DNA from: an uncultured Enterobacteriaceae bacterium
Lineage (GTDB): Bacteria; Pseudomonadota; Gammaproteobacteria; Eutrophobiales; Eutrophobiaceae
NCBI GenBank assembly: GCA_964504725.1
Contig: CAZDFI010000004.1
Coordinates: forward strand, 1-46,591
Direction: 5' to 3'
DNA length: 46,591 bases
Part shown: in pieces, positions 1-46,463 of the stretch
Position numbering within the stretch: the stretch's first letter is position 1
Layout of the letters: every line of letters starts with the position of its first letter
Notes under the pieces: generated by a model
The model's input: the letters and a program-made list of their open reading frames with translations, nothing else
Database searches by the model: none
Told to the model about the DNA's origin: nothing
Program-made: the position numbers and the translations under genes

Positions 1-664
1 TCGCGAGGACATGGGTAAAGGTGCGAGCCGCCGCCTGCGTCGTGAGGGTAAAGTTCCCGGAGTTGTTTATGGGGGAGCGAAAGAGGCAGCTTCGATCATG
101 ATTAGTCACAATGAGATTTATCATCATCTTGAGAATGAAGCTTTTTATTCTCACATCCTGACGCTACAGCTAGGAAAGGCGAAGGAGAAAGTCGTACTCA
201 AAGACTTGCAACGCCATCCATACAAACCCACAGTACTTCACTTTGATTTACAACGTATTGATGAAAAAGAGAAGTTAACTATGCGTGTGCCATTGCATTT
301 TATTAATGAAAAAAAATGTATTGGTGTCAAGGAAAGTGGTGGTGTGGTTAGTCGCGTGATGAATGAACTGGAAGTTAGCTGTTTACCTAAAGACTTGCCC
401 GAATATATTGAAGTTGATTTGGCTGAGGTTAATATTGGTGAGGGGATCCACCTCTCTGATCTTATAATGCCTGAAGGTGTCGAAATTACTGCTTTGGCAC
501 ATGGTGGCGACGCAGCGCGAACGGTAGCAACTGTTCATATACCTAAGGTTATCGTAGAGGAAGAAGAAGAAGAAGAGGTTGTAGAAGGAGCTGAGGTTGG
601 TGTTGAGGCAGAGGAAGGGGCTGAGGAAGCAGCCACTGATGAAGGTGCTGATGCAGGCGAGTAA
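1..664 (+). CDS. rplY: 50S ribosomal protein L25 / general stress protein Ctc, 5' end cut by the window edge
   Basis: GKGASRRLRREGKVPGVVYG motif is typical of the L25/Ctc N-terminus. The frame is open back to base 2, so the listed ATG at 11 is probably internal. Long Glu-rich C-terminal tail. Confidence 0.9.
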   Translation, partial: REDMGKGASRRLRREGKVPGVVYGGAKEAASIMISHNEIYHHLENEAFYSHILTLQLGKAKEKVVLKDLQRHPYKPTVLHFDLQRIDEKEKLTMRVPLHFINEKKCIGVKESGGVVSRVMNELEVSCLPKDLPEYIEVDLAEVNIGEGIHLSDLIMPEGVEITALAHGGDAARTVATVHIPKVIVEEEEEEEVVEGAEVGVEAEEGAEEAATDEGADAGE

Positions 665-702
665 TTCCTTTATTCGGAATCACCTCGCTTCAAGGGCACA
701 TC

Positions 703-1296
703 GTGCCATCAGCATTTAAATTAATCGTTGGTCTGGGCAATCCAGGCCCTGAACATTCCGCAACCCGGCATAATGCCGGGTTCTGGTTTGTTGAGTCACT
801 TGCAGAAAAATATTCCCTTACGTTCAGATCTGAATCTAAATACAACGCTGAGATATGTCGAATACAAACAGCAGATATTGATTGCTGGCTTTGTAAGCCG
901 ATGACTTTTATGAACAGAAGTGGTTTTTCGGTTCAAGCGATGGCCGGCTTTTATAAAATACCTGTTGAAGAGATCCTGGTAGCACATGATGAACTGGATC
1001 TGGAAGCCGGAATTGCCCGCCTGAAAAAAGGTGGCGGTCACGCTGGTCATAATGGATTGCGAGACATCATTGCACAGATGGGTGATAAGACTTTCACACG
1101 GCTACGCCTGGGGATTGACCATCCCGGGAGTCAGGATAAAGTGACACCCTATGTATTGGGTAGACCATCTCAGGAAGATCGTCAGTTAATCGAAATCGCG
1201 ATCAAGGAGTCGGTGGATGTGATGCCTCTGGTGCTAGAGGGGGAGATGCAGAAGGCGACACATGCCTTGCATCAAAAAAATACCATTGACGAATAA
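703..1296 (+). CDS. pth: peptidyl-tRNA hydrolase
   Basis: LIVGLGNPG...TRHNAGF and GHNGLRD motifs. GTG start. Conserved rplY-pth-ychF order. Confidence 0.95.
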
Positions 1297-1313
1297 TAAC
1301 GCAGAATAATTTT

Positions 1314-2405
1314 ATGGGTTTTAGATGTGGCATTGTTGGTCTACCAAATGTGGGCAAATCAACCTTATTCAATGCTTTGACGAACTCGGGCATTAATGCT
1401 GAAAACTATCCTTTTTGCACAATTGATCCGAATGTCGGTGTCGTGCCTGTGCCTGATCCTCGGCTGGATCGTCTGGCTGAGATCGTTTCTCCTCAGCGAG
1501 TTTTGCCGGCAACCATGGAGTTTGTTGATATTGCCGGATTGGTTGAAGGTGCCTCAAAAGGAGAAGGTCTGGGGAATAAATTTCTGGCGCATATTCGTGA
1601 AACACATGCGATTGCTCAAGTGGTGCGTTGTTTTGACGATGATAATATCGTCCATGTCTCAGGTAAGGTTGATCCACTCGCTGATATTGAAGTCATCAAT
1701 ACAGAGTTATGTTTAGCAGATATGGAAAGCCTTGATCGTGCTCTGCAGAAGGTACTCAAAATTGCCAAAAGTGGAGATAAAGTCGCACGCAGACAGCAGG
1801 GGTTGTTCGAAAAAGTCATTGCACATGTGGATGAGGGTAATCCGGTACGGTCTATGGAATTGAATGAGCAAGACATTGAAGATTTATATCCACTGCATTT
1901 ACTGACGCAAAAGCCTACGCTTTATATTGCGAATGTTGAAGATGAAGGCGCTATCAGTAATCCGTGGATAGAAAAACTTAAAACACTTGCAGCGGATGAA
2001 GGCGCGGAAGTGATTCCGGTGTGTGCCGCAATAGAATCCGAGATTGCCGAACTGGATGATGAATCAAAGCTGGAGTTTTTGCAGGAGATTGGACTTGAAG
2101 AGCCAGGGCTGAATCGCATTATTCGTGCGGGTTATGCATTGTTGAATCTACACACCTATTTTACAGCGGGGGAAAAGGAAGTTCGTGCCTGGACTCTACA
2201 TAGAAGCGACTCAGCCCCGCGTGCCGCAGCTGTCATTCATACTGATTTTGAAAATGGCTTTATACGTGCAGAAGTGATTGCTTATGATGATTTTATTCAG
2301 TATCAGGGCGAGCAGGGAGCGAAGGACGCAGGTAAATGGCGGCTGGAAGGCAAGGAATATATCGTGCAAGATGGTGACGTTATGCATTTCCGTTTCAACG
2401 TTTAA
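1314..2405 (+). CDS. ychF: ribosome-binding ATPase YchF (Obg-family)
   Basis: [19 protein letters not shown]-loop, 363 aa, C-terminal ...[11 protein letters not shown]. Confidence 0.95.
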
Positions 2406-2610
2406 AAGCTGAAGTTGGTAAAATACTTCGTTATCTATCGGCTCAAAACCCCCATTTTCTATTAGTAAATTCCGCTTTTGACCAATTTCTACCTTGTCTT
2501 TCACTCACCTTTAACTTTTAATGTTTCTTCTGGAGTGCAGCGCTATTTATTGATAATACTGTATCTCGTTCCGAAGCAATTATTTGAGTTTTAGGTTGAT
2601 AACAAAGAAA

Positions 2611-3249
2611 ATGAATTCTTCAAAAATACGCAAGCAAATTATTGAAACAGCTATCGCGTTTAACACGTCTGGTCTGAGTGTTGGGACTTCGGGAAATCTC
2701 AGTGCGCGAATATCCCAAGGTTATCTGATCACCCCAACGGGGATCCCTTATACCCGGCTTAAGGAAGCAGACATCGTTGAAATGGATCTGCAAGGCAATG
2801 TGGTACATAGTGATCTGAAACCATCCAGCGAATGGCATTTCCATCAGGATATCTATCTTGCTCGTGAGGAAGTTAGTGCGATTGTCCATGTGCATTCCGA
2901 TTATGCAACAGGGATAGCTTGCACACGACAGGACATTCCTGCGTTCCATTATATGGTGGCAAAAGCGGGAGGAGATTCAATCCATTGCGCGGAATACGCA
3001 ACTTTTGGCACGGATGCACTGTCACAAAATGCAGTCAAGGCACTCCAGGGAAGGAATGCATGTTTGCTGGCAAACCATGGCATGATTGCACTTGGCGAGA
3101 GTATTGATTCAGCTTATAAACTCGCCGAAGAAATTGAGAACATCGCCAAACAATACTATATCAGTAAGCAGCTTGGAGAAGTTGTATTGCTGGATGGTGA
3201 CGAGATGAAAATAAATCTAGAGAAATTTAAAACATACGGCAAGCAATAG
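2611..3249 (+). CDS. class II aldolase/adducin-family protein (FucA / methylthioribulose-1-P dehydratase-like)
   Basis: GTSGNLSAR, PSSEWHFH and VHVHS metal-ligand-type motifs. The ORF opens at TTG 2584, but ATG 2611 (MNSSKIRKQ) is the more plausible start. Confidence 0.8.
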   Translation: MNSSKIRKQIIETAIAFNTSGLSVGTSGNLSARISQGYLITPTGIPYTRLKEADIVEMDLQGNVVHSDLKPSSEWHFHQDIYLAREEVSAIVHVHSDYATGIACTRQDIPAFHYMVAKAGGDSIHCAEYATFGTDALSQNAVKALQGRNACLLANHGMIALGESIDSAYKLAEEIENIAKQYYISKQLGEVVLLDGDEMKINLEKFKTYGKQ

Positions 3250-3362
3250 AGGGCAGAAGGATGAATAGCAACCCCCTGATTTTGTTAATCGACAATTAAT
3301 TCAATCAGCCATACTTTATTGATTCCCTGAATTAATTCCTGCGTAATATAGTCTTTCAGCCA

Positions 3363-4307
3363 TTATTTGATTTTGTAAGCTAACAACTTGTCGTTTTTCA
3401 TCATGGGTATCAGTATTAAGTTATGTTCAAGAATCACTTCATGATCAGCCATGCCTTGTTCCAGTTCCAGCAAAAGTGTCGCTTCGCCATTGGAATTGAT
3501 TTGGAATAATTTCCCTGTCATCCAGTCAGTGACGTAATAGCCATCTTTACCATCACTCTCCACACCATCCAGATTGCCGATGGGGGAACCACCAAGGCTG
3601 GTAATGGATTTATCTTTAAGAGAAATAGATTTTAAATGGCCAGGGATTTCTGTGGCAAAACCATCGGTCATCACACCCCATGCACCGAGAATCAGGTTAT
3701 TATCTTCTGTATGTAGACCGTTAGGGTTCTCAAGTTCAGGGCTTTCAAGCCATATGTTGAATTCATCATTGTCTAAACGATGAATACGATTAAGCAACAT
3801 ATCAGAGACGAAGATTTCACCCTCTTTATTTGCAGCAACATCATTAAGAAATTTTGCATCATCCACTTTATATGTATTGATGATAGTGCCAGATAGAATA
3901 TTTATCGTAAGCAATGTATCTATATCGGAGACATAAAGGGTGTTGTTATAAATCGCAAGTCCTTTCGGTGCATTTAAACCAATGATCCACTTTCTGCTTA
4001 GCATTGTGCCATCAAGTAAGACCTTCGAGATATAACCATTGCCATCTTTTTCGACGGGTGAACCATTAACATTGGAAACAAATAAGGTATCGCTTGGTTC
4101 ATGATAAATTACTGATTCGGGATTATTAAAGCCTGTCGTTTCCCAGGCCAGTTCAAGTTCAGCCCCAATCTTTTGAGACTTATCACTAGCTACTTTTTCA
4201 GATGACGCAGTGTCATTTGTAGCGTCCTGTGGTGGTTGAGCTTCTTCTGAACAAGCACTAAGGACAAAGGCGGTGAGTATCAATAAGGTATAACTAAGTT
4301 TTGTCAT
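3363..4307 (-). CDS. lipoprotein with probable beta-propeller fold (SMP-30/gluconolactonase/strictosidine-synthase-like)
   Basis: Signal peptide with lipobox LSAC. Repeated hydrophobic-strand/Gly-Asp patterns (LFVSNVNG, LYVSDIDT, IFVSDM, YYVTDW). The product call is tentative. Confidence 0.65.
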   Translation of the reverse strand: MTKLSYTLLILTAFVLSACSEEAQPPQDATNDTASSEKVASDKSQKIGAELELAWETTGFNNPESVIYHEPSDTLFVSNVNGSPVEKDGNGYISKVLLDGTMLSRKWIIGLNAPKGLAIYNNTLYVSDIDTLLTINILSGTIINTYKVDDAKFLNDVAANKEGEIFVSDMLLNRIHRLDNDEFNIWLESPELENPNGLHTEDNNLILGAWGVMTDGFATEIPGHLKSISLKDKSITSLGGSPIGNLDGVESDGKDGYYVTDWMTGKLFQINSNGEATLLLELEQGMADHEVILEHNLILIPMMKNDKLLAYKIK

Positions 4308-4353
4308 GATTTTTCTCAGATGGAATATATAAGGTGGAACTAATAGTTAATAA

Positions 4354-5157
4354 CTATAGGTTAAATAACTCTTGGAGTTTTTTACCCGGATCTTCTGCAC
4401 TCATAAAAGCTTCGCCAACAAGGAAACCATTAACACCATGTTTACGCATCGTTTTAACTTGTTCTATGCTATGAATACCACTTTCAGTAATCACTGTACG
4501 ATCATGAAAAACATCAGGTAATAAACCGATAGTCGTTTCAATATCGGTTTCAAATGTATGTAAGTTGCGATTGTTAATGCCGATTAGCGGTGTGCGTAAC
4601 ATTAAGCCACGCTCAAGCTCTTCACGATTATGTACTTCGACAAGGATATCCAGCCCAATTTCCTGTGCGGTGCCAACCAACTCCTGCATTTGCATATCGG
4701 ACAAGGCAGAGACGATGATGAGAATACAATCGGCACCTAAAACTCTGGACTCATAAATCTGGTACGGATCAATCATGAAGTCTTTTCGCAATACCGGCAA
4801 TGTACAGGCTGCTCGTGCACTTTGCATATACGCATCTGAGCCTTGAAAAAAATCCACATCAGTCAGAACTGAAAGGCAACTTGCACCTGCATCCTCATAA
4901 GACCGGGCAATAAATTCAGGATCAAAATTTTCACAAATAACCCCCTTGCTCGGAGAAGCTTTTTTAATTTCCGCAATGACAGCGGTTTTGCCTGCACTAA
5001 CAGCCTTCTCGATTGCAACGCTGAAACCACGAGTCGGGGGACAATCATCGGCTCTGTGTTTTAATTCCTGTTGCGGCATTTTTGGTTTACGTTCGCTGAT
5101 TTCTTCAGACTTACGTGCCAGAATTTTCTGTAGAATATCAGGGGTGTTTTGTGCCAT
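4354..5157 (-). CDS. trpC: indole-3-glycerol phosphate synthase
   Basis: [12 protein letters not shown] and LPVLRKDF motifs. Sits in a trpE-G-D-C run. Confidence 0.95.
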
Positions 5158-5185
5158 GGTTTAAATGTTTTGAGAAAGATTGAGC

Positions 5186-6202
5186 CTAAAATGATTGTGT
5201 GAGCTTTGCCAGTTCATCAAGTTTGGATCTGGCCGAACCGTTTTCAATAACATGTTTTGCAGACTCAATACCTGCTGCCAACGAGTCTTCGATGCCAGCG
5301 GTATAAATCGCAGCACCCGCATTTAACAAAACGATATCCAGAGTTGGGCCACTCTGATTGTCCAGTACGGCATACATCACCTGTAGACTCTCATCGACAC
5401 TTTCGACAGCCAGTGTGCTGATATCGGCTCGTTGTAGTTTGAACTGTTCCGGCTCTATTTTATAAGTATTGATTTCGCCATTTTTCAACTCGGCAATGTT
5501 GGTAGGCGCCGAAATACTGATTTCATCCATGCCGTCATGGGAATGTACAATCATCACTTGTTCGCTACCGAGATTTTTCAGAACATTTGCTAATGTCTCC
5601 AGCCAGTCATGATTAAACACACCCATCACCTGACGTTTTGCCCCGGCGGGGTTGGTTAAAGGTCCCAGAACATTAAATAAAGTACGTACACCAAGTTCAC
5701 GACGTGGACCGATTGCGTATTTCATCGCACTATGATGCATAGGCGCAAACATAAAGCCTATGCCAAGTTTTTCGACGCACTGCGCAACTTGTTCGGGTGT
5801 AAGATCAAATTTTACACCTGCAGCTTCCAGCACATCTGCACTGCCTGATTTGCTTGAGACAGAGCGATTACCATGTTTTGCAACATTTCCACCAGCCGCC
5901 GCAACCACAAAGGCTGCTGTTGTGGAAATATTAAATGTGCTGGATCCATCTCCACCGGTTCCACAAGTATCAATCAGATTTTCCCGATTGATGTGAACGC
6001 GACTGGCGAGTTGTCGCATGATTTGTGCGGCAGCAGTGATTTCTTCAATCGTCTCGCCTTTACTTCTTAGCCCGACCAGAAAACCTGCAATTTGAGCATC
6101 TGTGCATTCTCCAGTCATGATGTTTTGCATGACACTGCGCATCTCATCATTGTTGAGATGTTTTTTATCGATGACGGATTGTATTGCGTTTTGGATGTCC
6201 AT
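5186..6202 (-). CDS. trpD: anthranilate phosphoribosyltransferase
   Basis: CGTGGDG, NISTTAAFV and KHGNRSVSSKSGSADVLEA motifs. Confidence 0.95.
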   Translation of the reverse strand: MDIQNAIQSVIDKKHLNNDEMRSVMQNIMTGECTDAQIAGFLVGLRSKGETIEEITAAAQIMRQLASRVHINRENLIDTCGTGGDGSSTFNISTTAAFVVAAAGGNVAKHGNRSVSSKSGSADVLEAAGVKFDLTPEQVAQCVEKLGIGFMFAPMHHSAMKYAIGPRRELGVRTLFNVLGPLTNPAGAKRQVMGVFNHDWLETLANVLKNLGSEQVMIVHSHDGMDEISISAPTNIAELKNGEINTYKIEPEQFKLQRADISTLAVESVDESLQVMYAVLDNQSGPTLDIVLLNAGAAIYTAGIEDSLAAGIESAKHVIENGSARSKLDELAKLTQSF

Positions 6203-6230
6203 TAATTAACCGTTCTAATTAGTATTGGTG

Positions 6231-6812
6231 CTACGCAATTTTCAGAAAATTATTCAAGAGCTCATGTCCATAGGAAGTCAAAATGGATTCCGGATGAAAT
6301 TGTACGCCTGATATGGCATATTCTTTGTGCCTTACGCCCATGATTTCGTCCACTTCACCTTGCTCTGTTTGTGTCCATGCAGTGACTTCAAAACAATCAG
6401 GTAAGGTTTCCTGTTCAACGACCAGTGAGTGATAACGTGTCGCGGTGAATGGATTATCAAGACCGGCAAACACATCATGATTATTATGGTGAACTTCAGA
6501 AGTTTTACCGTGCATGATTTCCTTTGCATGTACAATTCTTCCGCCAAAGGCCTGGCCGATACTCTGGTGACCAAGACAAACACCCAGTAACGGCAGTTTA
6601 CCTTTGAAGTGTTCTACTAACTCGAGTGAGATACCTGCTTCGTTAGGTGTGCACGGACCTGGTGAAATAACGATTCGTTCAGGTGACAGTGCTTCAATCT
6701 CAGGAATGCTTATTTTGTCATTGCGATAGATGAGTATTTCTTCGCCCAGCTCACCAAAGTATTGAACCAGGTTGTAGGTAAAAGAATCGTAGTTGTCTAT
6801 CATCAATAACAT
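6231..6812 (-). CDS. trpG: anthranilate synthase component II (glutamine amidotransferase, TrpG/PabA type)
   Basis: [22 protein letters not shown] catalytic Cys, FHPES. Confidence 0.9.
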
Positions 6813-6829
6813 AATTAATAGCGGTATCC

Positions 6830-8302
6830 TTAATTTAAACCTTTTTCAGCCATGGTAACGGCCCTGAAAATGGCACGGCCTTTATTCATTGTTTCCTTCC
6901 ATTCATTCTCAGGCACGGAATCTGCCACGATGCCTGCGCCCGCCTGAATGTGCAAGGTATCACCTTTAATTACTGCCGTGCGGATGGCAATGGCTGTGTC
7001 CATATTACCATTCCATGAAAGGTAGCCCACGGCACCGGCATAAACGCCACGTTTAACAGGCTCCAATTCGTCAATGATTTCCATTGCCCTTATTTTAGGT
7101 GCTCCTGAGACAGTTCCAGCCGGGAAAGTCGCCCTGAAAACATCAATGGCAGTTTGTCCGCTTTTGAGTGTACCAACCACATTGGAAACGATATGCATCA
7201 CATGGGAATAACGTTCAACGATCATTTTATCTGTGACCTTGACGCTGCCCATCTCAGCGACACGACCCGTGTCGTTACGACCCAGATCGATCAACATTAA
7301 ATGTTCCGCCAGTTCCTTTGGATCAGCCAGTAACTCTTCTTCCAGTGCCAGGTCTTCTTCTGCATCAGCCCCTCGAGGACGGGTGCCTGCGATCGGTCGA
7401 ACCGTGATTTCATTATCTTCCAGGCGTACCAGTATTTCCGGTGAAGAACCGACAATATGAAAATCCTTTAAATTCAGGTAAAACATATAAGGTGATGGAT
7501 TTAAACAACGTAAGGCACGATAGAGGTCTATCGGTGGCGCGTTAAATGGAATCGACAGGCGTTGCGAAAGTACAACCTGCATGGCATCTCCTTCAACAAT
7601 GTAATCTTTTATTCGATCAACACCCTGTTGAAATTTTTCTTGCGTGAACCCGGAGATAAAATCTTTCTCCTCAACGTTTCTTGTATTTCCATTAGGCGTA
7701 TCATTTATGGCTACAGTTAGTTTTTTGGCAAGTTCATCAAGCTGTTGTTGGGCTTTTTCATAGGCATCGCTCTGTTCCGGGTTTGCATGGACAATAAGGT
7801 AAAGTTTGCCGCTCAGATTATCGAACACGATCAGTTGTTCTGAAACCATTAGCAAAATATCCGGACAATTGAGTGGATCGTCCTTATCAGAAATATCCAG
7901 ACGCGTTTCAATATAGCGGACGCAGTCATAAGCAAAGTAACCTACCATGCCACCGGAAAATCTTGGCATTCCAACTATCTCAGGAACACGGAATTCCTGT
8001 TGATATTGTTCCACTGCTTGCAACGGATCCTCGACTGTTTCCTCCCTGATAATTTTTCCATTTTCTTCGATGGTTAGTTGATGACCGGAAACACGGAGAA
8101 TCGTGCTGGAACCCAGACCAATAATGGAATAACGACCCCATTTTTCTCCGCCATGTACCGATTCAAGCAAGTAGGTGTAGGGTTCGTCAGCCAGTTTTTT
8201 GTAGGCACTCAGCGGTGTGTCCATATCTGCGAGTACTTCTCGCATCAGTGGAATTCGGTTGTAATTGCCTTCGGCAAGTTGTTTGTATTGTTCCGGTGTC
8301 AT
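6830..8302 (-). CDS. trpE: anthranilate synthase component I
   Basis: LLESV, GAVGYLS and chorismate-binding C-terminal motifs, 490 aa. Confidence 0.95.
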
Positions 8303-8998
8303 CTAAGCTGCTACCTGAAAGACGTCTGGAAACGCCGCCAACGAGTCAACGACAAGATCCGGGTTGTTAAGGCGAATGTCCTGACCCAGATTATACCCAT
8401 AGCTGACACATAAAACCTGAAATCCAGCAGCACGTGCGGCACTGACATCATTGATTGAATCACCCACCATTAAAGCTTGCGAGGCACTGACGCCAAAAAA
8501 TTTAGCGGCATGCAGTAGTGGCAGGGGATCAGGTTTTTTCTTTGGCAATGTGTCTCCACTAATGACGATGCCAAATGCATTTTGAATACCCAGGGTTTCA
8601 AGTATTGTCTGTGTGAACTGGCTGTGTTTGTTAGTGACACAGGCGAGTTTGAATTGATTGCTTATCAGATAATCCAGGCCTTCTTTTACACCATCGTATA
8701 AGCGACTATGTTTACAGGCATTTTGCTTATATTCGCTGATGAATAAGGGTAAGGCTTTAGCAAAAAGTGATGCTAATGGTTCTTTATCGAAATCATTCGG
8801 CACAAAATTATTACTTAGGGCACGTTTCACCAGTCGTTCAATGCCATTGCCGACCCATTCTCTGGTTTTCATTTCCCCGGCTTCAGGCATCCCCAGATTT
8901 TGCAGCATGCTGTCCAGACAATAAGCAAGATCGGGAACGGTATCGACCAATGTTCCATCCAAATCCAGCACGACCATTTCAGGTTGATTTAAAAACAT
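8303..8998 (-). CDS. gph: phosphoglycolate phosphatase (HAD superfamily)
   Basis: VVLDLDGTLVDT HAD motif I and GDSINDV motif. Conserved rpe-gph-trpE context. The stop abuts the trpE start. Confidence 0.85.
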   Translation of the reverse strand: MFLNQPEMVVLDLDGTLVDTVPDLAYCLDSMLQNLGMPEAGEMKTREWVGNGIERLVKRALSNNFVPNDFDKEPLASLFAKALPLFISEYKQNACKHSRLYDGVKEGLDYLISNQFKLACVTNKHSQFTQTILETLGIQNAFGIVISGDTLPKKKPDPLPLLHAAKFFGVSASQALMVGDSINDVSAARAAGFQVLCVSYGYNLGQDIRLNNPDLVVDSLAAFPDVFQVAA

Positions 8999-9013
8999 GG
9001 GATAGGGGACAGC

Positions 9014-9688
9014 TCAGGCTTGCGAAGTGGCCAGCTCAGTACGCATGGCATTAATGGTTGCCTGATAATCGTCACTGCCAAAGATGGCAGAGCCTGCGAC
9101 GAAGGTATCAGCTCCGGCTTCAGCAATCTCACGAATATTATCTACCTTAACGCCACCATCTATTTCGAGACGAATATCGTAATCACTGTCATCGATGATT
9201 TGACGCGCCTGTTTCAGTTTATCCAGGACCGACGGAATAAATGATTGTCCACCAAACCCAGGGTTAACGGACATGAGAAGCACCATATCAACCTTGTCAA
9301 TCACGTTGCTTAGAATATCCAGTGGTGTCGCCGGGTTAAATACGAGGCCAGACTTACAGCCATTGTCGTGGATCAGTTGCAAGCTTCTGTCCACGTGTTC
9401 GCTGGCTTCCGGGTGGAATGTGATATAGTTGGCACCAGATTTGGCAAAATCAGGGATGATTCGGTCAACCGGTTTGATCATCAAGTGCACATCAAGTGGT
9501 GCCTCAATGCCGTAATCACGCAAAGCTTCTACAATCACCGGGCCGAAAGTCAGGTTTGGAACATAGTGATTATCCATCACATCAACATGGACAAAATCTG
9601 CGCCTGCCGCCAGAACCTTGGCTGTGTCATCGCCCAGGCGGGCCATATCTGCCGACAATATTGAGGGTGCAATGATGAAATCAGTCAT
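9014..9688 (-). CDS. rpe: ribulose-phosphate 3-epimerase
   Basis: [21 protein letters not shown] and [10 protein letters not shown] motifs. Confidence 0.95.
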
Positions 9689-9815
9689 AATTAGTTACAT
9701 CTGTTGTAGTACAGGCTTTTAAAGGCCGCAACTCTACCCGATCATGCCAATGATAGCCACTGGAGCCAAGCGCTCAGGCCAGGAATTCAGGGTACGAATC
9801 CATTAGACTAAGGGC

Positions 9816-10682
9816 ATGATACGGGCCGATCTTTTTATCGTCATTTTTCTGCTGGGTTTCATGTTCAATGGTCAAGTTGCAGCGAAGGACATTCAGCAAC
9901 TGAACCGGGAGCAGGAAATTGCACAAAAATTAGTACGGATCGCAGATGCTGACGAAATTGTCAGCTTAAAGGCATCAGGGACTCGGTTTATTGGATTATA
10001 TAAAAGCGCCAGAGACGACGCAGTAAACGAAACGAGTGGTGTTGTGATCCTGGTGCATGGCATGGGCGCACATCCAGACTGGCCAGATGTGATTTCGCCA
10101 CTGCGAACGCGACTAACAAAATCTGGCTGGTCAACACTTTCAATACAGATGCCAATCCTGTCACCGGAAGAGTCCGTTGCCGAATATGGTAAGACGCTGA
10201 AAACTGCAAATCGTCGGATACAAGCTGCGGTTGATTATCTGCATGCCTGGGAGATGGATCCAATTATTCTACTGGGTTACAGCTTTGGGGCGGCACAGTC
10301 AGCAAGTTATCTGGCAAGCGACCAGCCTGAAAATGTCGCGGCCTTCGTGTCTGTGAGTGTGTTGTCTCAAAAGTTTATCAAACCGAAACTGGATGTATTT
10401 AAATCGATTGGTGGGATAAATATTCCCATACTTGATATATATGGTGAAGAAGATTTAGCAGATGTCAGGCGCGGGATTGACGACCGTCGTCTGGCAGCAA
10501 GTAAAAACGGCCATAATTCATTTCAACAGATAGAATTGCAGCAGGCAGGACATAATTATTTAGGCGCCGAAAAGGCGTTGGCAGAGCAAATTCAACAGTG
10601 GTTGCAACAAATTACTGAAGTCATTGGCGAATCCAGTGAAATTCCTGAAATTTCGACTGAAATTTCTAATGAAAAACAATAG
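9816..10682 (+). CDS. secreted alpha/beta-hydrolase-fold protein (DUF3530-like)
   Basis: N-terminal signal peptide, VILVHGMG...PDWP, GYSFGA nucleophile-elbow-like motif. The family assignment is from memory only. Confidence 0.6.
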   Translation: MIRADLFIVIFLLGFMFNGQVAAKDIQQLNREQEIAQKLVRIADADEIVSLKASGTRFIGLYKSARDDAVNETSGVVILVHGMGAHPDWPDVISPLRTRLTKSGWSTLSIQMPILSPEESVAEYGKTLKTANRRIQAAVDYLHAWEMDPIILLGYSFGAAQSASYLASDQPENVAAFVSVSVLSQKFIKPKLDVFKSIGGINIPILDIYGEEDLADVRRGIDDRRLAASKNGHNSFQQIELQQAGHNYLGAEKALAEQIQQWLQQITEVIGESSEIPEISTEISNEKQ

Positions 10683-10741
10683 ACTGATGGACAAGATAGA
10701 TTGGTAATAAGCTGCTCTGACAGTAGAGGGGGGGAGGGGCA

Positions 10742-11110
10742 ATGAATCAGGAAGTTGATACCGTTCACGTTCCGGATAAAGAAGAACGTACCTGGGGGAT
10801 GTTTTGTCACTTGGTAGTTTTTTTAGGTTTAATTATCCCATTCGCAAGTATTATTGGCCCGCTTGTCATCTGGATGATTAAAAGAGACGAGATGCCTTTT
10901 GTTGAGGATCAGGGAAAAGAATCCCTGAATTTTCAGATCACCATGATGCTTGCAACGATTGTGTCAGCACTGTTGATGTTTGTGCTCATTGGCTTTGTAC
11001 TCATTTTCGTCGTAATAATCTTTCAATTCATTGTTGTCATCATAGCCTCAATCAAGGCAAATGAAGGGGTATGTTATCGATATCCTCTTAGTATCAGATT
11101 TATTAAATAA
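10742..11110 (+). CDS. small integral membrane protein (DUF4870-like)
   Basis: EERTWGMFCHL... followed by 3 hydrophobic helices and ESLNFQIT, typical of DUF4870 proteins. Confidence 0.6.
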   Translation: MNQEVDTVHVPDKEERTWGMFCHLVVFLGLIIPFASIIGPLVIWMIKRDEMPFVEDQGKESLNFQITMMLATIVSALLMFVLIGFVLIFVVIIFQFIVVIIASIKANEGVCYRYPLSIRFIK

Positions 11111-11147
11111 TAAAATTATTAATACGGGTAATTGAAGGAGAAACATT

Positions 11148-12107
11148 ATGGATGGAGGAACAATTTTTACTTTTATCTTTCTGGGACTGATATTTATCGG
11201 CTTTTTCAAAGCGGTCAATACAGTTAACCAGGGTTACGAATACACAGTAGAGCGTTTCGGAGAATATCGAAGAACACTACGCCCGGGACTGCACTTTATT
11301 GTGCCTTATTTCGATGCAATCGGTGCCAGGATGAACATGATGGAATCCGTGATGGAGGTACCATCCCAGGAAGTGATCACCAAAGATAATGCCATGGTCA
11401 GAGTAGATGGCGTGGTCTTCTTCCAGGTACTGAATGCGGCGAAGGCGGCTTATGAAGTGAATGATTTGACCAGAGCGATAATGAATCTGACCACGACCAA
11501 TATTCGTACAGTGATGGGTTCGATGGATCTGGATGAGTTGTTATCAAAAAGAGATACCATCAACGCACAATTACTCTCTGTTGTCGATGAAGCCACAGGA
11601 CCCTGGGGTGTGAAAGTCACGCGTATTGAGATCAAGGATATTACACCACCGCAAGACTTGGTCGAATCCATGGCCAGACAAATGAAGGCAGAGCGAGACA
11701 AACGCGCGAACATTCTTGAGGCAGAAGGTTTCAAACAAGCTGAAATTCTCAAAGCAGATGGTGAAAAGAGAGCAGCCATCCTTGAAGCAGAAGGTCGTAA
11801 GGAATCAGCCTATCGTGATGCGGAAGCCAGGGAGAGACAGGCAGCAGCAGAAGCCAAGGCAACCACCGATGTTTCCAATGCCATCGCCTCTGGTAATATT
11901 CAGGCGATCAATTACTTCGTTGCAAATAAATATATTGAGGCACTGAAAGATATCGCTGCTGCGCCAAATCAAAAAGTGATCTTGATGCCACTGGAAGCCA
12001 GCAATGTGATCGGTGCGCTTGCAGGTATTACCGAGATTGCCAGGGAAACATTTGGACAGGAATCATCTTCCAGGGCGACAAATGATGATGGCTCTAATAG
12101 AGGGTAG
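11148..12107 (+). CDS. SPFH/band-7 (stomatin/prohibitin-like) membrane protein
   Basis: N-terminal TM, SPFH core, and Ala/Glu-rich EAEG(F/R)K repeat coiled coil. Followed by NfeD. Confidence 0.9.
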
Positions 12108-42248: not shown

Positions 42249-42348
42249 TGGGGTTTGTCTATTATTTGTTTATTAGTAATACTATTAATATAAGTGAATG
42301 CTTACATTTATAGTGTATTTTGAGAGTAGTTTTGCCTACTAGCGGCAT

Positions 42349-42480
42349 TCGTCATACCGGCCTTGAGCCGGTATCCAGTCAATATTAAACTTTTATGTCT
42401 TTTTAAATTGATTTCGCCTTTACCCGGCGTGTACCTTTTCTTTGTACGAACGAAAGAAAAGGTACGAAAAGAAAGCCGCC
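42349..42480. repeat. MITE/REP-like element, copy B
   Basis: 42349-42383 are identical to 21416-21450. Shares TTGATTTCGCCTTT and an inner hairpin, here a perfect 13-bp stem (42431-42443/42453-42465). Relative to copy A, a C insertion in one arm is matched by a G insertion in the other. Confidence 0.7.
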
Positions 42481-42576
42481 CCCAATATCGTGTCCTGCGG
42501 ATACCCTCACAGCTGTATGATTTTTTAAGGTCGCGCCTACATGCCTTCCTAGCATGAAGCCCCTCATTTAAACATC

Positions 42577-42627
42577 CCTGTTTAAATGACCTTAAAATCA
42601 TTCAACTGCTCGGCACGATTTAGGGGG
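42577..42627. repeat. left copy of a ~51-bp inverted repeat bracketing the accessory segment
   Basis: The reverse complement of 42577-42627 matches 46491-46541 at 43/51 positions, aligned by hand. Confidence 0.65.
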
Positions 42628-42808
42628 TTAAAAACCACGCCCAAAGTGGCGGATCTATGAAAACAGGTTTATCCTGAAACTCCACAAACAAATACCAATG
42701 GAATAGGTATGAAAGTACAGCACTTATTAATCTTATCTGAAAAAAAGACACGCTTTACCCCTTTAATTTCCAATATACGCGTCCTTCGAAGGACTGCTTA
42801 TTAACTAG

Positions 42809-44257
42809 TTAGGCGACAAAATAAAATTATAAGAATCTCACAAAACGGAGACTAAAAAAGGAACGAATGCGGTGATGAAGAAATTCTTACTTAATCCTTT
42901 CGAAGAAGCAGAACGCCAAGTTCAAGAGCGCGGGGATTGGGTCGTTGCTACAGTAGATCCCCGAATGAGCTGGCCAACACAACAACAGATAGTTGAGTTT
43001 GAAGGAAAAGACTTTGTATTGATTCCCCAGTCCACAGATGCTGATCAAACTGCCGCTGTTGCCCTGAGATCTGATCGCTATGAACTAAGTATGGAGGAAG
43101 TGCGGCGTGAAATTATGCGCTTCTGTAGTGCGCTCTCATGGTCGGAGGGAAGTGGATTATCAGTTCTTGCCTGGAGCGGGGGGAACTTACCTAGGCCAAT
43201 TGGTATTCGAAGAGGGAGAGTTGTAACAAACTTCCTTGATACCGAGCACCTCCCAATAGCCCAAACCCAAGAGGAAAGAGCAGCGATTGCCTTGTATCGA
43301 GAGGGGGTGTCTCTAGACAATCCTTTCTATGCATTTTTAAGCTTGTATAAAGCCATAAGTGTACTTCTACCAAAGGGTAAAGCGCGCGGCGCTTGGATCA
43401 CCGACGCCTTGGATCGCCTTGATGATCATCGAGCAAAAGGACGATGTGATGAAATTAGAAATAGCGGTGCCGATGTGGGCCTATATCTATTTGAGGAATG
43501 TCGGAATGCCATAGCCCATGCTGAGCAAGAACCCTTCATAAATCCAGACGAGGTCGATGATCATTTTAGACTCTCACAGGATATTCCTCTCCTTCGAAAC
43601 CTCGCTGAATTAGCAATTGAAGAAAACTCAACCTTAAAAAGGTCTCATACGCTTTGGCGTGAGCATCTCTACGAATTGGCAGAATTCCGAAATCTGTTTC
43701 CTGATGATGTTATTGATATGCTTGTACAATCAGAGCCAATCCCGGAAGGAACAACTGTTGATTTACCTGATCGATACACGGTCTTAGCTCGTCGCGAAGC
43801 TGAAGTTAATAGCTTCGAAGACATGATCCCCGAAATTACGGGACAGGTTGAAGGAGGCATCGTGTTCGACCTAGTAACCGAAGATGGCGCAATAAGAATA
43901 AGAACTGTACTCTCTTTTGCGGATGAGCGGTTGAAGTTTGATCCTTTGGGAGGCATTGGATTCACGCCGAATCGAGATGATCCCAAATATATTCAGTATG
44001 AGATTGATTCTCTTCTCTTTTCTCGTTGTATTCTTAGCAATGGCCATTTAGAGATATGGGATCAAGATGAGGGGTTGATGCTTGGACGTTCAGAAACCTG
44101 CATCCCCGTTAATTGCTTTGTAAACACTAAATATTACGAGTCCGAGTTATCAACGCTGAGGAAGTTACTGGAACCCGATGATCAGACAAATGGCGATAAT
44201 ATCGCCTAACAAATGTATACAGTCGGACGCAGCAGAGCTGCGCCGCTGATGCGAGCG
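42809..44257 (+). mobile_element. putative integron-type gene cassette (1449 bp), single ORF plus attC-like site
   Basis: Starts TTAGGC after G42808 and ends with G44257 of the attC-like R' box. Joining the ends gives GTTAGGC, the perfect complement of the R'' box GCCTAAC at 44204-44210. No intI in the window. Confidence 0.55.
42872..44209 (+). CDS. hypothetical 445-aa protein with R-x4-H (HEPN/MauJ-like) motif
   Basis: Long clean ORF. AAGGA about 12 nt upstream of ATG 42875 (GTG at 42872). Helical segment AIALYREGVSLDNPFYAFLSLYKAISVLL followed by ECRNAIAHAE (R211-H216, nt 43502-43519). I recognise no other family. Confidence 0.8.
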   Translation: MMKKFLLNPFEEAERQVQERGDWVVATVDPRMSWPTQQQIVEFEGKDFVLIPQSTDADQTAAVALRSDRYELSMEEVRREIMRFCSALSWSEGSGLSVLAWSGGNLPRPIGIRRGRVVTNFLDTEHLPIAQTQEERAAIALYREGVSLDNPFYAFLSLYKAISVLLPKGKARGAWITDALDRLDDHRAKGRCDEIRNSGADVGLYLFEECRNAIAHAEQEPFINPDEVDDHFRLSQDIPLLRNLAELAIEENSTLKRSHTLWREHLYELAEFRNLFPDDVIDMLVQSEPIPEGTTVDLPDRYTVLARREAEVNSFEDMIPEITGQVEGGIVFDLVTEDGAIRIRTVLSFADERLKFDPLGGIGFTPNRDDPKYIQYEIDSLLFSRCILSNGHLEIWDQDEGLMLGRSETCIPVNCFVNTKYYESELSTLRKLLEPDDQTNGDNIA

Positions 44258-44263
44258 TTATGA
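44204..44263 (+). other. attC-like recombination site (60 bp)
   Basis: GCCTAAC-aaatgt-ATaCAGtCGGaCGCAGC-aga-GCTGCGCCGCTGAT-gcgagc-GTTATGA. 14-bp stem with three single-base bulges, all on the 5' arm. 6x6 internal loop. Outer 7-mers pair at 5/7. The ORF stop codon lies inside the first box. Confidence 0.6.
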
Positions 44264-44267
44264 CAAC

Positions 44268-44287
44268 AAAAGGGGACAGATTTATTT
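44268..44287 (+). repeat. 20-bp direct repeat AAAAGGGGACAGATTTATTT, copy 1
   Basis: Identical to 46066-46085. Also pairs with CCCCTTTT at 44330-44337. Confidence 0.7.
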
Positions 44288-44399
44288 ATTCATAACGGTT
44301 TAAATGTGAGTAAACACTTACTTAATATACCCCTTTTGTGTGCCCAAAAGAAAGGTTCCAAGTAGTATTATAATTCCCATCTAAATCTACCTGGAAAGA

Positions 44400-45746: not shown

Positions 45747-46067
45747 ATGAATAACAACGAGCTCCGCTCTCCCAGTATTAATCACATTTCCTGGGGTCAT
45801 ATGGAGGTCGATAATGTCGGTGTTGGTAAGGATTTCAAGCTTTGGCCTGGTGGTGGTCGGGTGTGGGACTGGAGGGAAACCGATACACATCACATACCCG
45901 GGATTCAACCCACTGACGTTGAAGAATTACTCGACAACGGGTGTCAAACGATTGTTTTAAGCCGGGGAATGTTGCTGATGCTGCACACGCGTCGGGAGAC
46001 GCTAGATCTGCTTGATGAGAGAAATATTCCAGTGCATATCGCCGAGACGAAGGCAGCGGCCACATAA
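45747..46067 (+). CDS. Mth938-like (DUF498) domain protein
   Basis: ISWGHMEV...DFKLWPGG...W.W..T.T.H.PGIQ...IVLSRGM pattern is typical of the Mth938/NDUFAF3-like family, recalled from memory. Confidence 0.7.
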   Translation: MNNNELRSPSINHISWGHMEVDNVGVGKDFKLWPGGGRVWDWRETDTHHIPGIQPTDVEELLDNGCQTIVLSRGMLLMLHTRRETLDLLDERNIPVHIAETKAAAT

Positions 46068-46085
46068 AAGGGGACAGATTTATTT
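46066..46085 (+). repeat. 20-bp direct repeat AAAAGGGGACAGATTTATTT, copy 2
   Basis: Identical to 44268-44287. Overlaps the stop codon of the Mth938-like ORF. Confidence 0.7.
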
Positions 46086-46100
46086 TATCTGATATAGAAA

Positions 46101-46463
46101 ATGAGAAACGAAGAAGAAAAAATATTTATAGTGCTTATTCACTTGGGTGGCAACATTCCTACAATGGACAGGATAAGGGAGACCGCGCCCAGAGTTAAAC
46201 AGGCTATTGAAAAGCTTTCTCAGAGTAACTGCCAGTTGGTTAGTGCTTCAGATAGTGGTAATTCGTTTAGTTATTTTTTAAAAACTAAACTTCCTTCAGA
46301 GGTGATACGTGCTGAACTATTTGGGAAAACAAAATCATCAAATATATCTCCTCTACTAAATGACGATAGTGCTCTTATATTGGAGGTTGGTAGTGAATAC
46401 TCAGGTATGGGATTTAGTAAAGCCTGGACATGGTTGCAACACAGACAAAATGGTGGGGACTAG
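46101..46463 (+). CDS. hypothetical protein, 120 aa, no recognisable family
   Basis: Only long ORF in this interval. No obvious Shine-Dalgarno. The stop lies inside the 10-bp palindrome GGACTAGTCC (46457-46466). Confidence 0.5.
   Translation: MRNEEEKIFIVLIHLGGNIPTMDRIRETAPRVKQAIEKLSQSNCQLVSASDSGNSFSYFLKTKLPSEVIRAELFGKTKSSNISPLLNDDSALILEVGSEYSGMGFSKAWTWLQHRQNGGD

Follow-up and report, generated by a model that had tools for sequence, protein, structure and literature searches.

A lone MauJ-family gene in an acquired segment

The window analysed here is the whole 46,591-nt stretch of contig CAZDFI010000004.1 (positions 1 to 46,591, forward strand; assembly GCA_964504725.1, an uncultured Enterobacteriaceae bacterium), a region of core genes (trpD, rlmN, rodZ, a bamC-like gene, suf, iscR). 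Between iscR/sufA/sufB and a flavin adenine dinucleotide (FAD) oxidoreductase gene, the window carries a genuine gene of the MauJ family at 42872-44209 (forward strand; 445 codons, GTG start), which encodes a three-domain product and which an initial annotation had proposed to be a HEPN-like toxin or defence effector carried by an integron cassette. The database copy of the product is 444 amino acids (aa) long and begins at an ATG one codon (3 bases) after the GTG. The GTG start is kept in an 87%-identical homologue from a Geopsychrobacter metagenome-assembled genome (MAG; locus L009). A Shine-Dalgarno-like AAGGAA lies 9 nt 5' of the GTG, within a 57-nt cassette leader (42815-42871, forward strand) that is ~85% identical to the leader of the L009 copy; upstream of the heptamer GTTAGGC, which precedes the leader, the two sequences are unrelated. 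No second gene was found in the unit or in the 57-nt leader, and the 445-aa open reading frame (ORF) stands alone, as the initial annotation had it. The product is a cytoplasmic protein, and the claim that it has no signal peptide or transmembrane segment was confirmed by its highest 19-residue Kyte-Doolittle mean of 1.06. Promoter and terminator scans returned background levels only, and no base-composition anomaly was seen across the gene.

The gene belongs to an acquired segment of ~2.0 kb (42306-44292) that is absent from the syntenic spacer between iscR and the oxidoreductase gene in a related genome (L044). In that genome, IscR (77% identical) and the FAD oxidoreductase (90% identical) are encoded with 357 nt between them and are followed by the same DUF498 gene; the break points of the segment were set by the alignments of the window with L044. 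Inside the segment, the 5' cassette junction is the heptamer GTTAGGC (42808-42814, forward strand), an R'-type GTTRRRY core with the recombination point G/TT. The window and L009 are homologous at the DNA level from precisely this heptamer onwards. In L009 it is the R' core that terminates a complete attC site of ~100 nt, which opens with GGCTAAC. Homology that starts at the heptamer closing an attC is the signature of one cassette shared between two settings.

At the 3' end of the gene we found a degenerate attC-like site (44204-44263, forward strand), which runs from GCCTAAC, overlapping the stop codon, through a bulged stem (44220-44248) to GTTATGA. Two bases on the R''-side arm of the central stem, which is the correct arm, are unpaired. 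R'' and R' are complementary at only 5/7 positions, and the site folds weakly (z = -1.75 to -2.1). Because this site fails both a strict attC regular expression and a relaxed 6-of-7 screen, the case for a cassette rests on the 5' junction and on the homologues. No other attC-like site was detected within the 46.6-kb window. A Phage_integrase match was likewise absent from the ten ORFs scanned, among them every ORF of integron-integrase size (~300-360 aa); as the contig ends 2.4 kb downstream, an integron nearby is still conceivable.

With regard to the homologues, the 68%-identical copy of Halomonas sp. Mc5H-6 (L002) lies in an array of unrelated single genes on the same strand, with attC-like sites that have complementary cores (e.g., GCATAAC...GTTATGC). 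This array looks like a sedentary chromosomal integron that includes a MauJ-family cassette. The copies of Halomonas (L002) and of a member of the Methylophilaceae (L011) have better sites than the window gene in the same place (YTATAAC...GTTATAC). As ~30 of the 35 homologue loci are without any attC, the family travels by several routes. The gene in the window is horizontally acquired, integron-cassette-derived cargo, and it is best described as a lone cassette that occupies a secondary site and is probably immobilised, and not as a member of an integron array. The original designation as a cassette can therefore be kept with respect to the genuine 5' junction and the attC array around the 68% homologue, but it has to be qualified by the degenerate 3' attC, by the lack of an integrase among the ORFs scanned and by the fact that most homologues are not cassettes.

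Two further observations concern these cassette loci. Positions 1-9000 of the Halomonas contig (JAMXSI010000013.1) encode proteins without assignment, DUF6624, His_Phos_1 and a CopG-like pair, most of them followed by a 70-100-nt attC-like site, and positions 9238-11502 hold additional same-strand genes (Macro, GFA, OsmC, HD) with no clear site. In L009 (3330-3480), a short remnant replaces the attC directly downstream of the 87% homologue. After the remnant comes a putative IS66-family-like ORF, as judged from its start, which suggests that insertion of an insertion sequence (IS) destroyed the attC of that cassette.

Family conservation and predicted structure

The resemblance to MauJ proteins that the initial annotation had noted was borne out by a full-length match to the Pfam domain MauJ (PF17419; E = 5.9e-29, 101.7 bits against a gathering cut-off of 28, model positions 1-116 of 116), located at aa 138-250 (43283-43621, forward strand). 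The domain family, named after mauJ of methylamine-utilisation clusters, is already catalogued, and the gene in the window is one of many members. The PF17419 model spans only 113/445 residues, and the conserved N- and C-terminal domains on either side of it are in no library. At E <= 10, all 45 aligned relatives match MauJ and no other Pfam family. A word-indexed search retrieved 135 relatives, nearly all 430-450 aa long, with the whole query covered, and an exhaustive profile search retrieved 1,646 clusters at 50% identity (E <= 1e-3; 481 of them at E <= 1e-30), nearly all of them full-length at 420-460 aa. In the longer members, which reach 713 aa, no additional Pfam domain was recognised, and so they provide no informative fusions. 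A large family with a uniform three-domain architecture of ~440 aa implies a self-sufficient unit. Its taxonomic spread is patchy and includes Gamma-, Alpha-, Beta- and Deltaproteobacteria, Pirellulales and Bryobacterales. Homologues of 250-315 aa were considered as a possible two-domain form, but they proved to be pieces or frameshifted versions of the full-length protein, and this form was rejected.

The candidate catalytic R-x4-H of the protein is R211-N-A-I-A-H216 (43502-43519, forward strand), within ECRNAIAHAE, and it is preceded by a helical stretch at residues 137-166 (AAIALYREGVSLDNPFYAFLSLYKAISVLL). The positions of both in the initial annotation are exact. At least one R-x4-6-H occurs in 81% of shuffles of the protein, and a second such motif, at R385, is not conserved. 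The motif alone is thus within chance in a single sequence, and it is the conservation of R211 and H216 that exceeds chance. Together with A215, the two residues are invariant in an alignment of 45 sequences. In an alignment of 235 sequences, whose median identity to the query is 33%, no column other than those of R211 and H216 is fully invariant. Lack of conservation of the two residues among homologues had been named at the outset as a sign against the HEPN-like assignment. The residue after the arginine (position 212) is C in 100 sequences, N in 71, H in 39, Q in 14 and S in 5, and is N in the window protein. Other conserved polar residues are R143, E144, Y153, D226, H265 and E268.

The structure of the whole protein was predicted using AlphaFold2 with the family alignment (predicted local distance difference test, pLDDT, 91.3; predicted template modelling score, pTM, 0.86), and secondary structure was assigned with DSSP; the middle domain was also predicted separately (pLDDT 89.7). 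Three domains are seen in the model. The N-terminal alpha/beta domain (aa 1 to ~125; 42872-43246, forward strand) has the conserved residues W23, W34, P35, W90 and G104 and is a candidate sensor or regulatory module. The middle domain (aa ~126-292) is all-helical and carries both the MauJ match and the R211/H216 pair. The C-terminal domain (aa ~293-435; 43748-44176, forward strand) is beta-rich, with conserved N390, G391, ERLxFDP and IPVN, and is acidic (family median net charge -7). The net charge of the window protein as a whole is -32, as compared with a MauJ-family median of -11. The helices modelled in the middle domain comprise residues 133-147, 151-165, a hairpin of 169-182 and 186-197, 202-215, and 228-251. 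In this model R211 is located near the end of helix 202-215, H216 is the first residue of the loop that follows, and helix 228-251 comes next. All three domains are without a recognisable relative among the structures searched. For the N- and C-terminal parts, which had been described as matching nothing familiar, this holds for both the PDB and BFVD.

Genomic contexts of the homologues

No conserved adjacent gene or partner was found in more than 30 homologue loci. Among 127 neighbours at 24 loci, the most frequent Pfam family was Phage_integrase (5 cases) and every other family occurred at most twice, in agreement with the earlier remark that no antitoxin-sized ORF adjoins the gene on its cassette. 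Integrases, IS elements and resolvases are the recurrent neighbours. A mau cluster or a conserved operon context was not seen in any of these >30 loci, nor in four plasmid loci where the gene is called mauJ by the Prokaryotic Genome Annotation Pipeline (PGAP). Homologues were found in variable or mobile regions and not in conserved metabolic operons, which the initial annotation would have taken as evidence for a different role.

These contexts bear directly on the database name. The Pfam and PGAP names would make the protein a true methylamine-utilisation accessory and an orthologue of mauJ, and the full-length domain match, shared by 45/45 relatives, is in line with the Pfam name. However, neither the window gene nor any of the inspected homologues has a gene for methylamine dehydrogenase or amicyanin, or another mau gene, beside it, and no inspected locus has a mau-cluster context. 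Because of this genomic context, we regard the orthologue interpretation as effectively refuted. Distant forms called mauJ, with other architectures, occur on the Agrobacterium plasmid pAt13-2099-1-2a (L045, 7314-8744) and on the Gemmobacter plasmid p3 (L040, 6315-7729). One of the two genes encodes a 476-aa protein that lacks the C-terminal domain and is extended by ~230 residues at its N terminus; the other encodes 242 aa and has a 225-aa hypothetical gene 8 nt upstream. Both adjoin IS66/IS3 elements and not mau genes.

The lack of a recurrent neighbour also has consequences for a second alternative, namely that the protein is the toxin of a toxin-antitoxin (TA) pair whose antitoxin has escaped recognition, being an RNA, the product of a small ORF or a partner from another part of the genome. 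As a rule, HEPN toxins come with an MNT antitoxin (PMC3710099), and a TwoAYGGAY RNA is present in the acquired segment. The gene resembles the type VII HEPN/MNT (HepT-MntA) systems in being a candidate R-x4-H toxin on mobile DNA, but differs from them in having neither an adjacent nucleotidyltransferase nor a conserved neighbour in the >30 loci, and in encoding a much larger protein with extra domains. Moreover, the 57-nt leader contains no ORF, and the TwoAYGGAY RNA is located beyond the cassette boundary and is missing next to the L009 homologue, the only homologue locus checked for it. A TA pair is therefore very improbable in our estimation.

Known defence genes were found at some of these loci. 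In Pseudomonas aeruginosa (L005-L008, positions 1-11320) the MauJ-family gene belongs to a conserved block that ends at a variable junction with an integrase. The order is a >1,661-aa NERD/kinase/helicase protein, MkoB (Mokosh, E = 1e-107), two unannotated proteins of 577 aa (401-587 by gene call) and 289 aa that have no PADLOC match, and the MauJ-family gene. In a gammaproteobacterial MAG, the gene is placed among AbiLi (6e-86), PDC-S11 (2e-173) and a ThsB-like TIR protein (1e-66). Both contexts are clear defence islands. A third locus includes Mrr, BrnT/BrnA and an M78 peptidase with DUF4411. Other strong PADLOC matches among neighbours are an SNF2 helicase protein (HmaA, DrmD), a type I restriction endonuclease, BrxH and reverse transcriptases. 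A putative defence or toxin role for the family rests on this genomic association. Truncated, frameshifted or pseudogenised copies are frequent (e.g., L015 at 10001-11301, L018 at 10001-10594, and proteins P0099 and P0101), as is expected for costly or toxic accessory genes. A ~288-aa neighbour that seemed to be shared by the Halomonas and P. aeruginosa loci was rejected, as the two proteins are unrelated.

It is also conceivable that the protein serves the mobile element itself, or acts as an anti-defence or virulence accessory, instead of defending the host. Copies are present on conjugative plasmids, beside IS elements and type III effectors (the Xanthomonas pXVH45 copy lies between a YopJ-family gene and IS3; other plasmid copies are from Ralstonia, Agrobacterium and Gemmobacter), and a few are present in IMG/VR contigs. 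Against this, few copies come from viruses (4 loci among 2.9 million contigs of IMG/VR, 0 of 50,697 phage records, no PHROG) or plasmids (7/72,556 records), and most copies are chromosomal island cargo. We consider a role of this kind improbable.

A possible HEPN-like effector and other features of the segment

Our best guess, to which we assign a probability of about 0.42, is that the protein is a self-contained HEPN-like RNase effector that acts in stress or against phages. The suggestion derives from the middle domain. In the HEPN superfamily (Anantharaman et al. 2013, PMC3710099), core helix 3 carries the motif at its end, where the loop to helix 4 starts, and the histidine is exposed; the residue after the arginine is typically polar (N, D or H); and the four-helix up-down core may have inserts between helices 2 and 3, possibly a helical hairpin. 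The predicted placement of R211/H216 along the helices is in keeping with this description, with the helix numbering assigned here from the secondary structure of the model. On comparison of secondary structure, the order of the helices is compatible with a helical-hairpin insert ahead of the motif helix. Overall, the similarities to HEPN proteins are the invariant R-x4-H, in which the arginine precedes a polar or small residue, the modelled location of the motif at a helix end, the predicted all-alpha core with a probable hairpin insert, and the association of the genes with mobile elements and defence.

A number of observations weigh against this interpretation. A further feature of many, but not all, HEPN families is an acidic residue of helix 2 that typically forms part of E-x3-[KR] (PMC3710099). 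It is absent from helix 151-165 of our model (PFYAFLSLYKAISVL), which has no conserved acid; the nearest one, E144 of R143-E144, closes helix 1. Across the family, Cys is the commonest residue after the arginine, unlike the typical N, D or H, and the strong acidity of the window protein is unusual for an RNA-binding enzyme. Searches with the HEPN Pfam models returned no match in the 45 members at E <= 10. The window protein is unmatched in PADLOC-DB v2.0 (E <= 10), NCBIfam and PHROGs, and sequence and profile searches of the PDB were empty. Using Foldseek, the best matches to the full model had E = 0.097 in the PDB and 0.011 in BFVD, with low probability and TM-score (template modelling score), and the best PDB match to the isolated middle domain had E = 0.39. 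The sole HEPN structure in the domain's top 50 was 2q00 (PaREP1), at rank 47 (E = 3.7). Our literature search on the function of the MauJ/PF17419 family, or on MauJ together with HEPN, found nothing relevant. Finally, many neighbours of the homologues are housekeeping genes, and known defence genes occur at a minority of loci.

The HEPN-like assignment of residues ~130-260 in the initial annotation is thus consistent with the position of the motif and with the predicted helix topology, but no profile or structural link to a HEPN protein was detected. The Apea-like resemblance that it had noted was not recovered, given that HEPN_Apea and the PADLOC models were without a match. The searches assigned neither a HEPN nor a non-HEPN fold.

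These results leave room for a non-nuclease MauJ protein, in which the R/H pair would bind a small molecule, a phosphate or a protein partner and the gene would be niche-adaptive accessory cargo. HEPN homology went undetected by any tool used and the protein is strongly acidic, and the conserved R143, E144, Y153, D226, H265 and E268 suggest a pocket more elaborate than a minimal HEPN site. In addition, cassettes and islands carry many non-defence genes, such as Macro, OsmC, HD and GFA in L002, and the founder of the MauJ family, which belongs to a metabolic gene cluster, counts in the same direction. On the other hand, the type of motif, its position and the helix topology match HEPN specifically, defence genes and integrases recur beside homologues, and none of the loci examined is a metabolic operon. 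We consider this explanation, the main rival to a HEPN-like effector, possible but rather unlikely.

If the protein is a HEPN-like effector, it would be expected to work as follows. The middle helical domain would be a divergent, metal-independent endoribonuclease of the HEPN type with R211/H216 as its active site. By analogy with other HEPN enzymes, this site would probably become complete at the interface between the subunits of a homodimer or oligomer. The two flanking domains, alpha/beta at the N terminus and acidic and beta-rich at the C terminus, would hold this effector inactive until a trigger, either phage infection or another stress cue, is sensed and releases it. RNA cleavage would then lead to growth arrest, and any defence phenotype would follow the abortive-infection logic, within a single polypeptide, of ApeA and DARNA. 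Both of these are single HEPN anti-phage proteins, equipped with separate sensing pockets or domains, for which defence by tRNA cleavage has been demonstrated experimentally; ApeA is activated by deoxydinucleotides and DARNA by single-stranded DNA bound by phage single-stranded DNA-binding protein (bioRxiv 10.64898/2026.01.26.701840, 10.64898/2026.02.22.705581). The likeness is in the proposed logic, that is, one gene, no antitoxin, an effector motif accompanied by non-catalytic domains, and a defence-island neighbourhood. The MauJ family differs in having no sequence relationship to either protein and in placing its helical domain centrally, between two unrelated domains.

A HEPN family from an integron cassette is also on record (PDB 3jrt; Table 1 in PMC3710099). 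The putative HEPN-motif protein encoded by the window is comparable in being carried as a single-gene cassette. However, 3jrt is not among the Foldseek matches listed, and the MauJ family is three times larger and mostly found outside integrons.

Extending the interpretation to the whole family, so that the ~440-aa MauJ proteins, now annotated as hypothetical or as methylamine-utilisation proteins, would be unrecognised single-gene, trigger-activated immunity or abortive-infection effectors with a HEPN-like RNase and two sensor or regulatory flanks, spread as cassettes and as island cargo, is at present doubtful. The functional reading and the two unmatched domains would be new. If the HEPN-like reading is true, a widespread family is mis-named as "methylamine utilization protein MauJ", and a compact one-gene RNase effector joins the defence repertoire, together with two unmatched domains to which the sensing must fall. 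The gene would then be a further case of immune or toxin genes being distributed by integrons and by lone cassettes at secondary sites. If the reading is false, MauJ is still a large, well-conserved and mobile family, with a sharply defined two-residue functional centre, and it remains a clean target for simple mutagenesis and toxicity work.

Other features were noted around the gene. The TwoAYGGAY RNA (RF01731), an orphan RNA motif (Weinberg 2010, PMC2864571), was found on the reverse strand at 42471-42634 by a permissive Rfam scan (full-length, 47.3 bits against a gathering threshold of 43, E = 1.9e-6), and was missed by a whole-window Rfam scan at the gathering threshold. A stretch of ~500 nt in the acquired segment is non-coding, and the RNA falls within it, upstream of the cassette and at a distance of 240 nt from the gene.

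A 19-nt sequence, AAAGGGGACAGATTTATTT, is repeated exactly and in direct orientation at 44269-44287 and 46067-46085, where chance would give 0.02 such repeats. The first copy is between the attC-like site and the point at which synteny with L044 resumes, and the second follows the stop codon of the DUF498 gene, ahead of an orphan ORF. The repeat may mark insertion ends or a recombination hot-spot. The orphan ORF (120 aa; 46101-46463, forward strand) has no Pfam or NCBIfam match and ends 128 nt before the end of the window. L044 has a DUF4124/glutaredoxin gene in its place, and the 120-aa ORF may be a second acquired gene.

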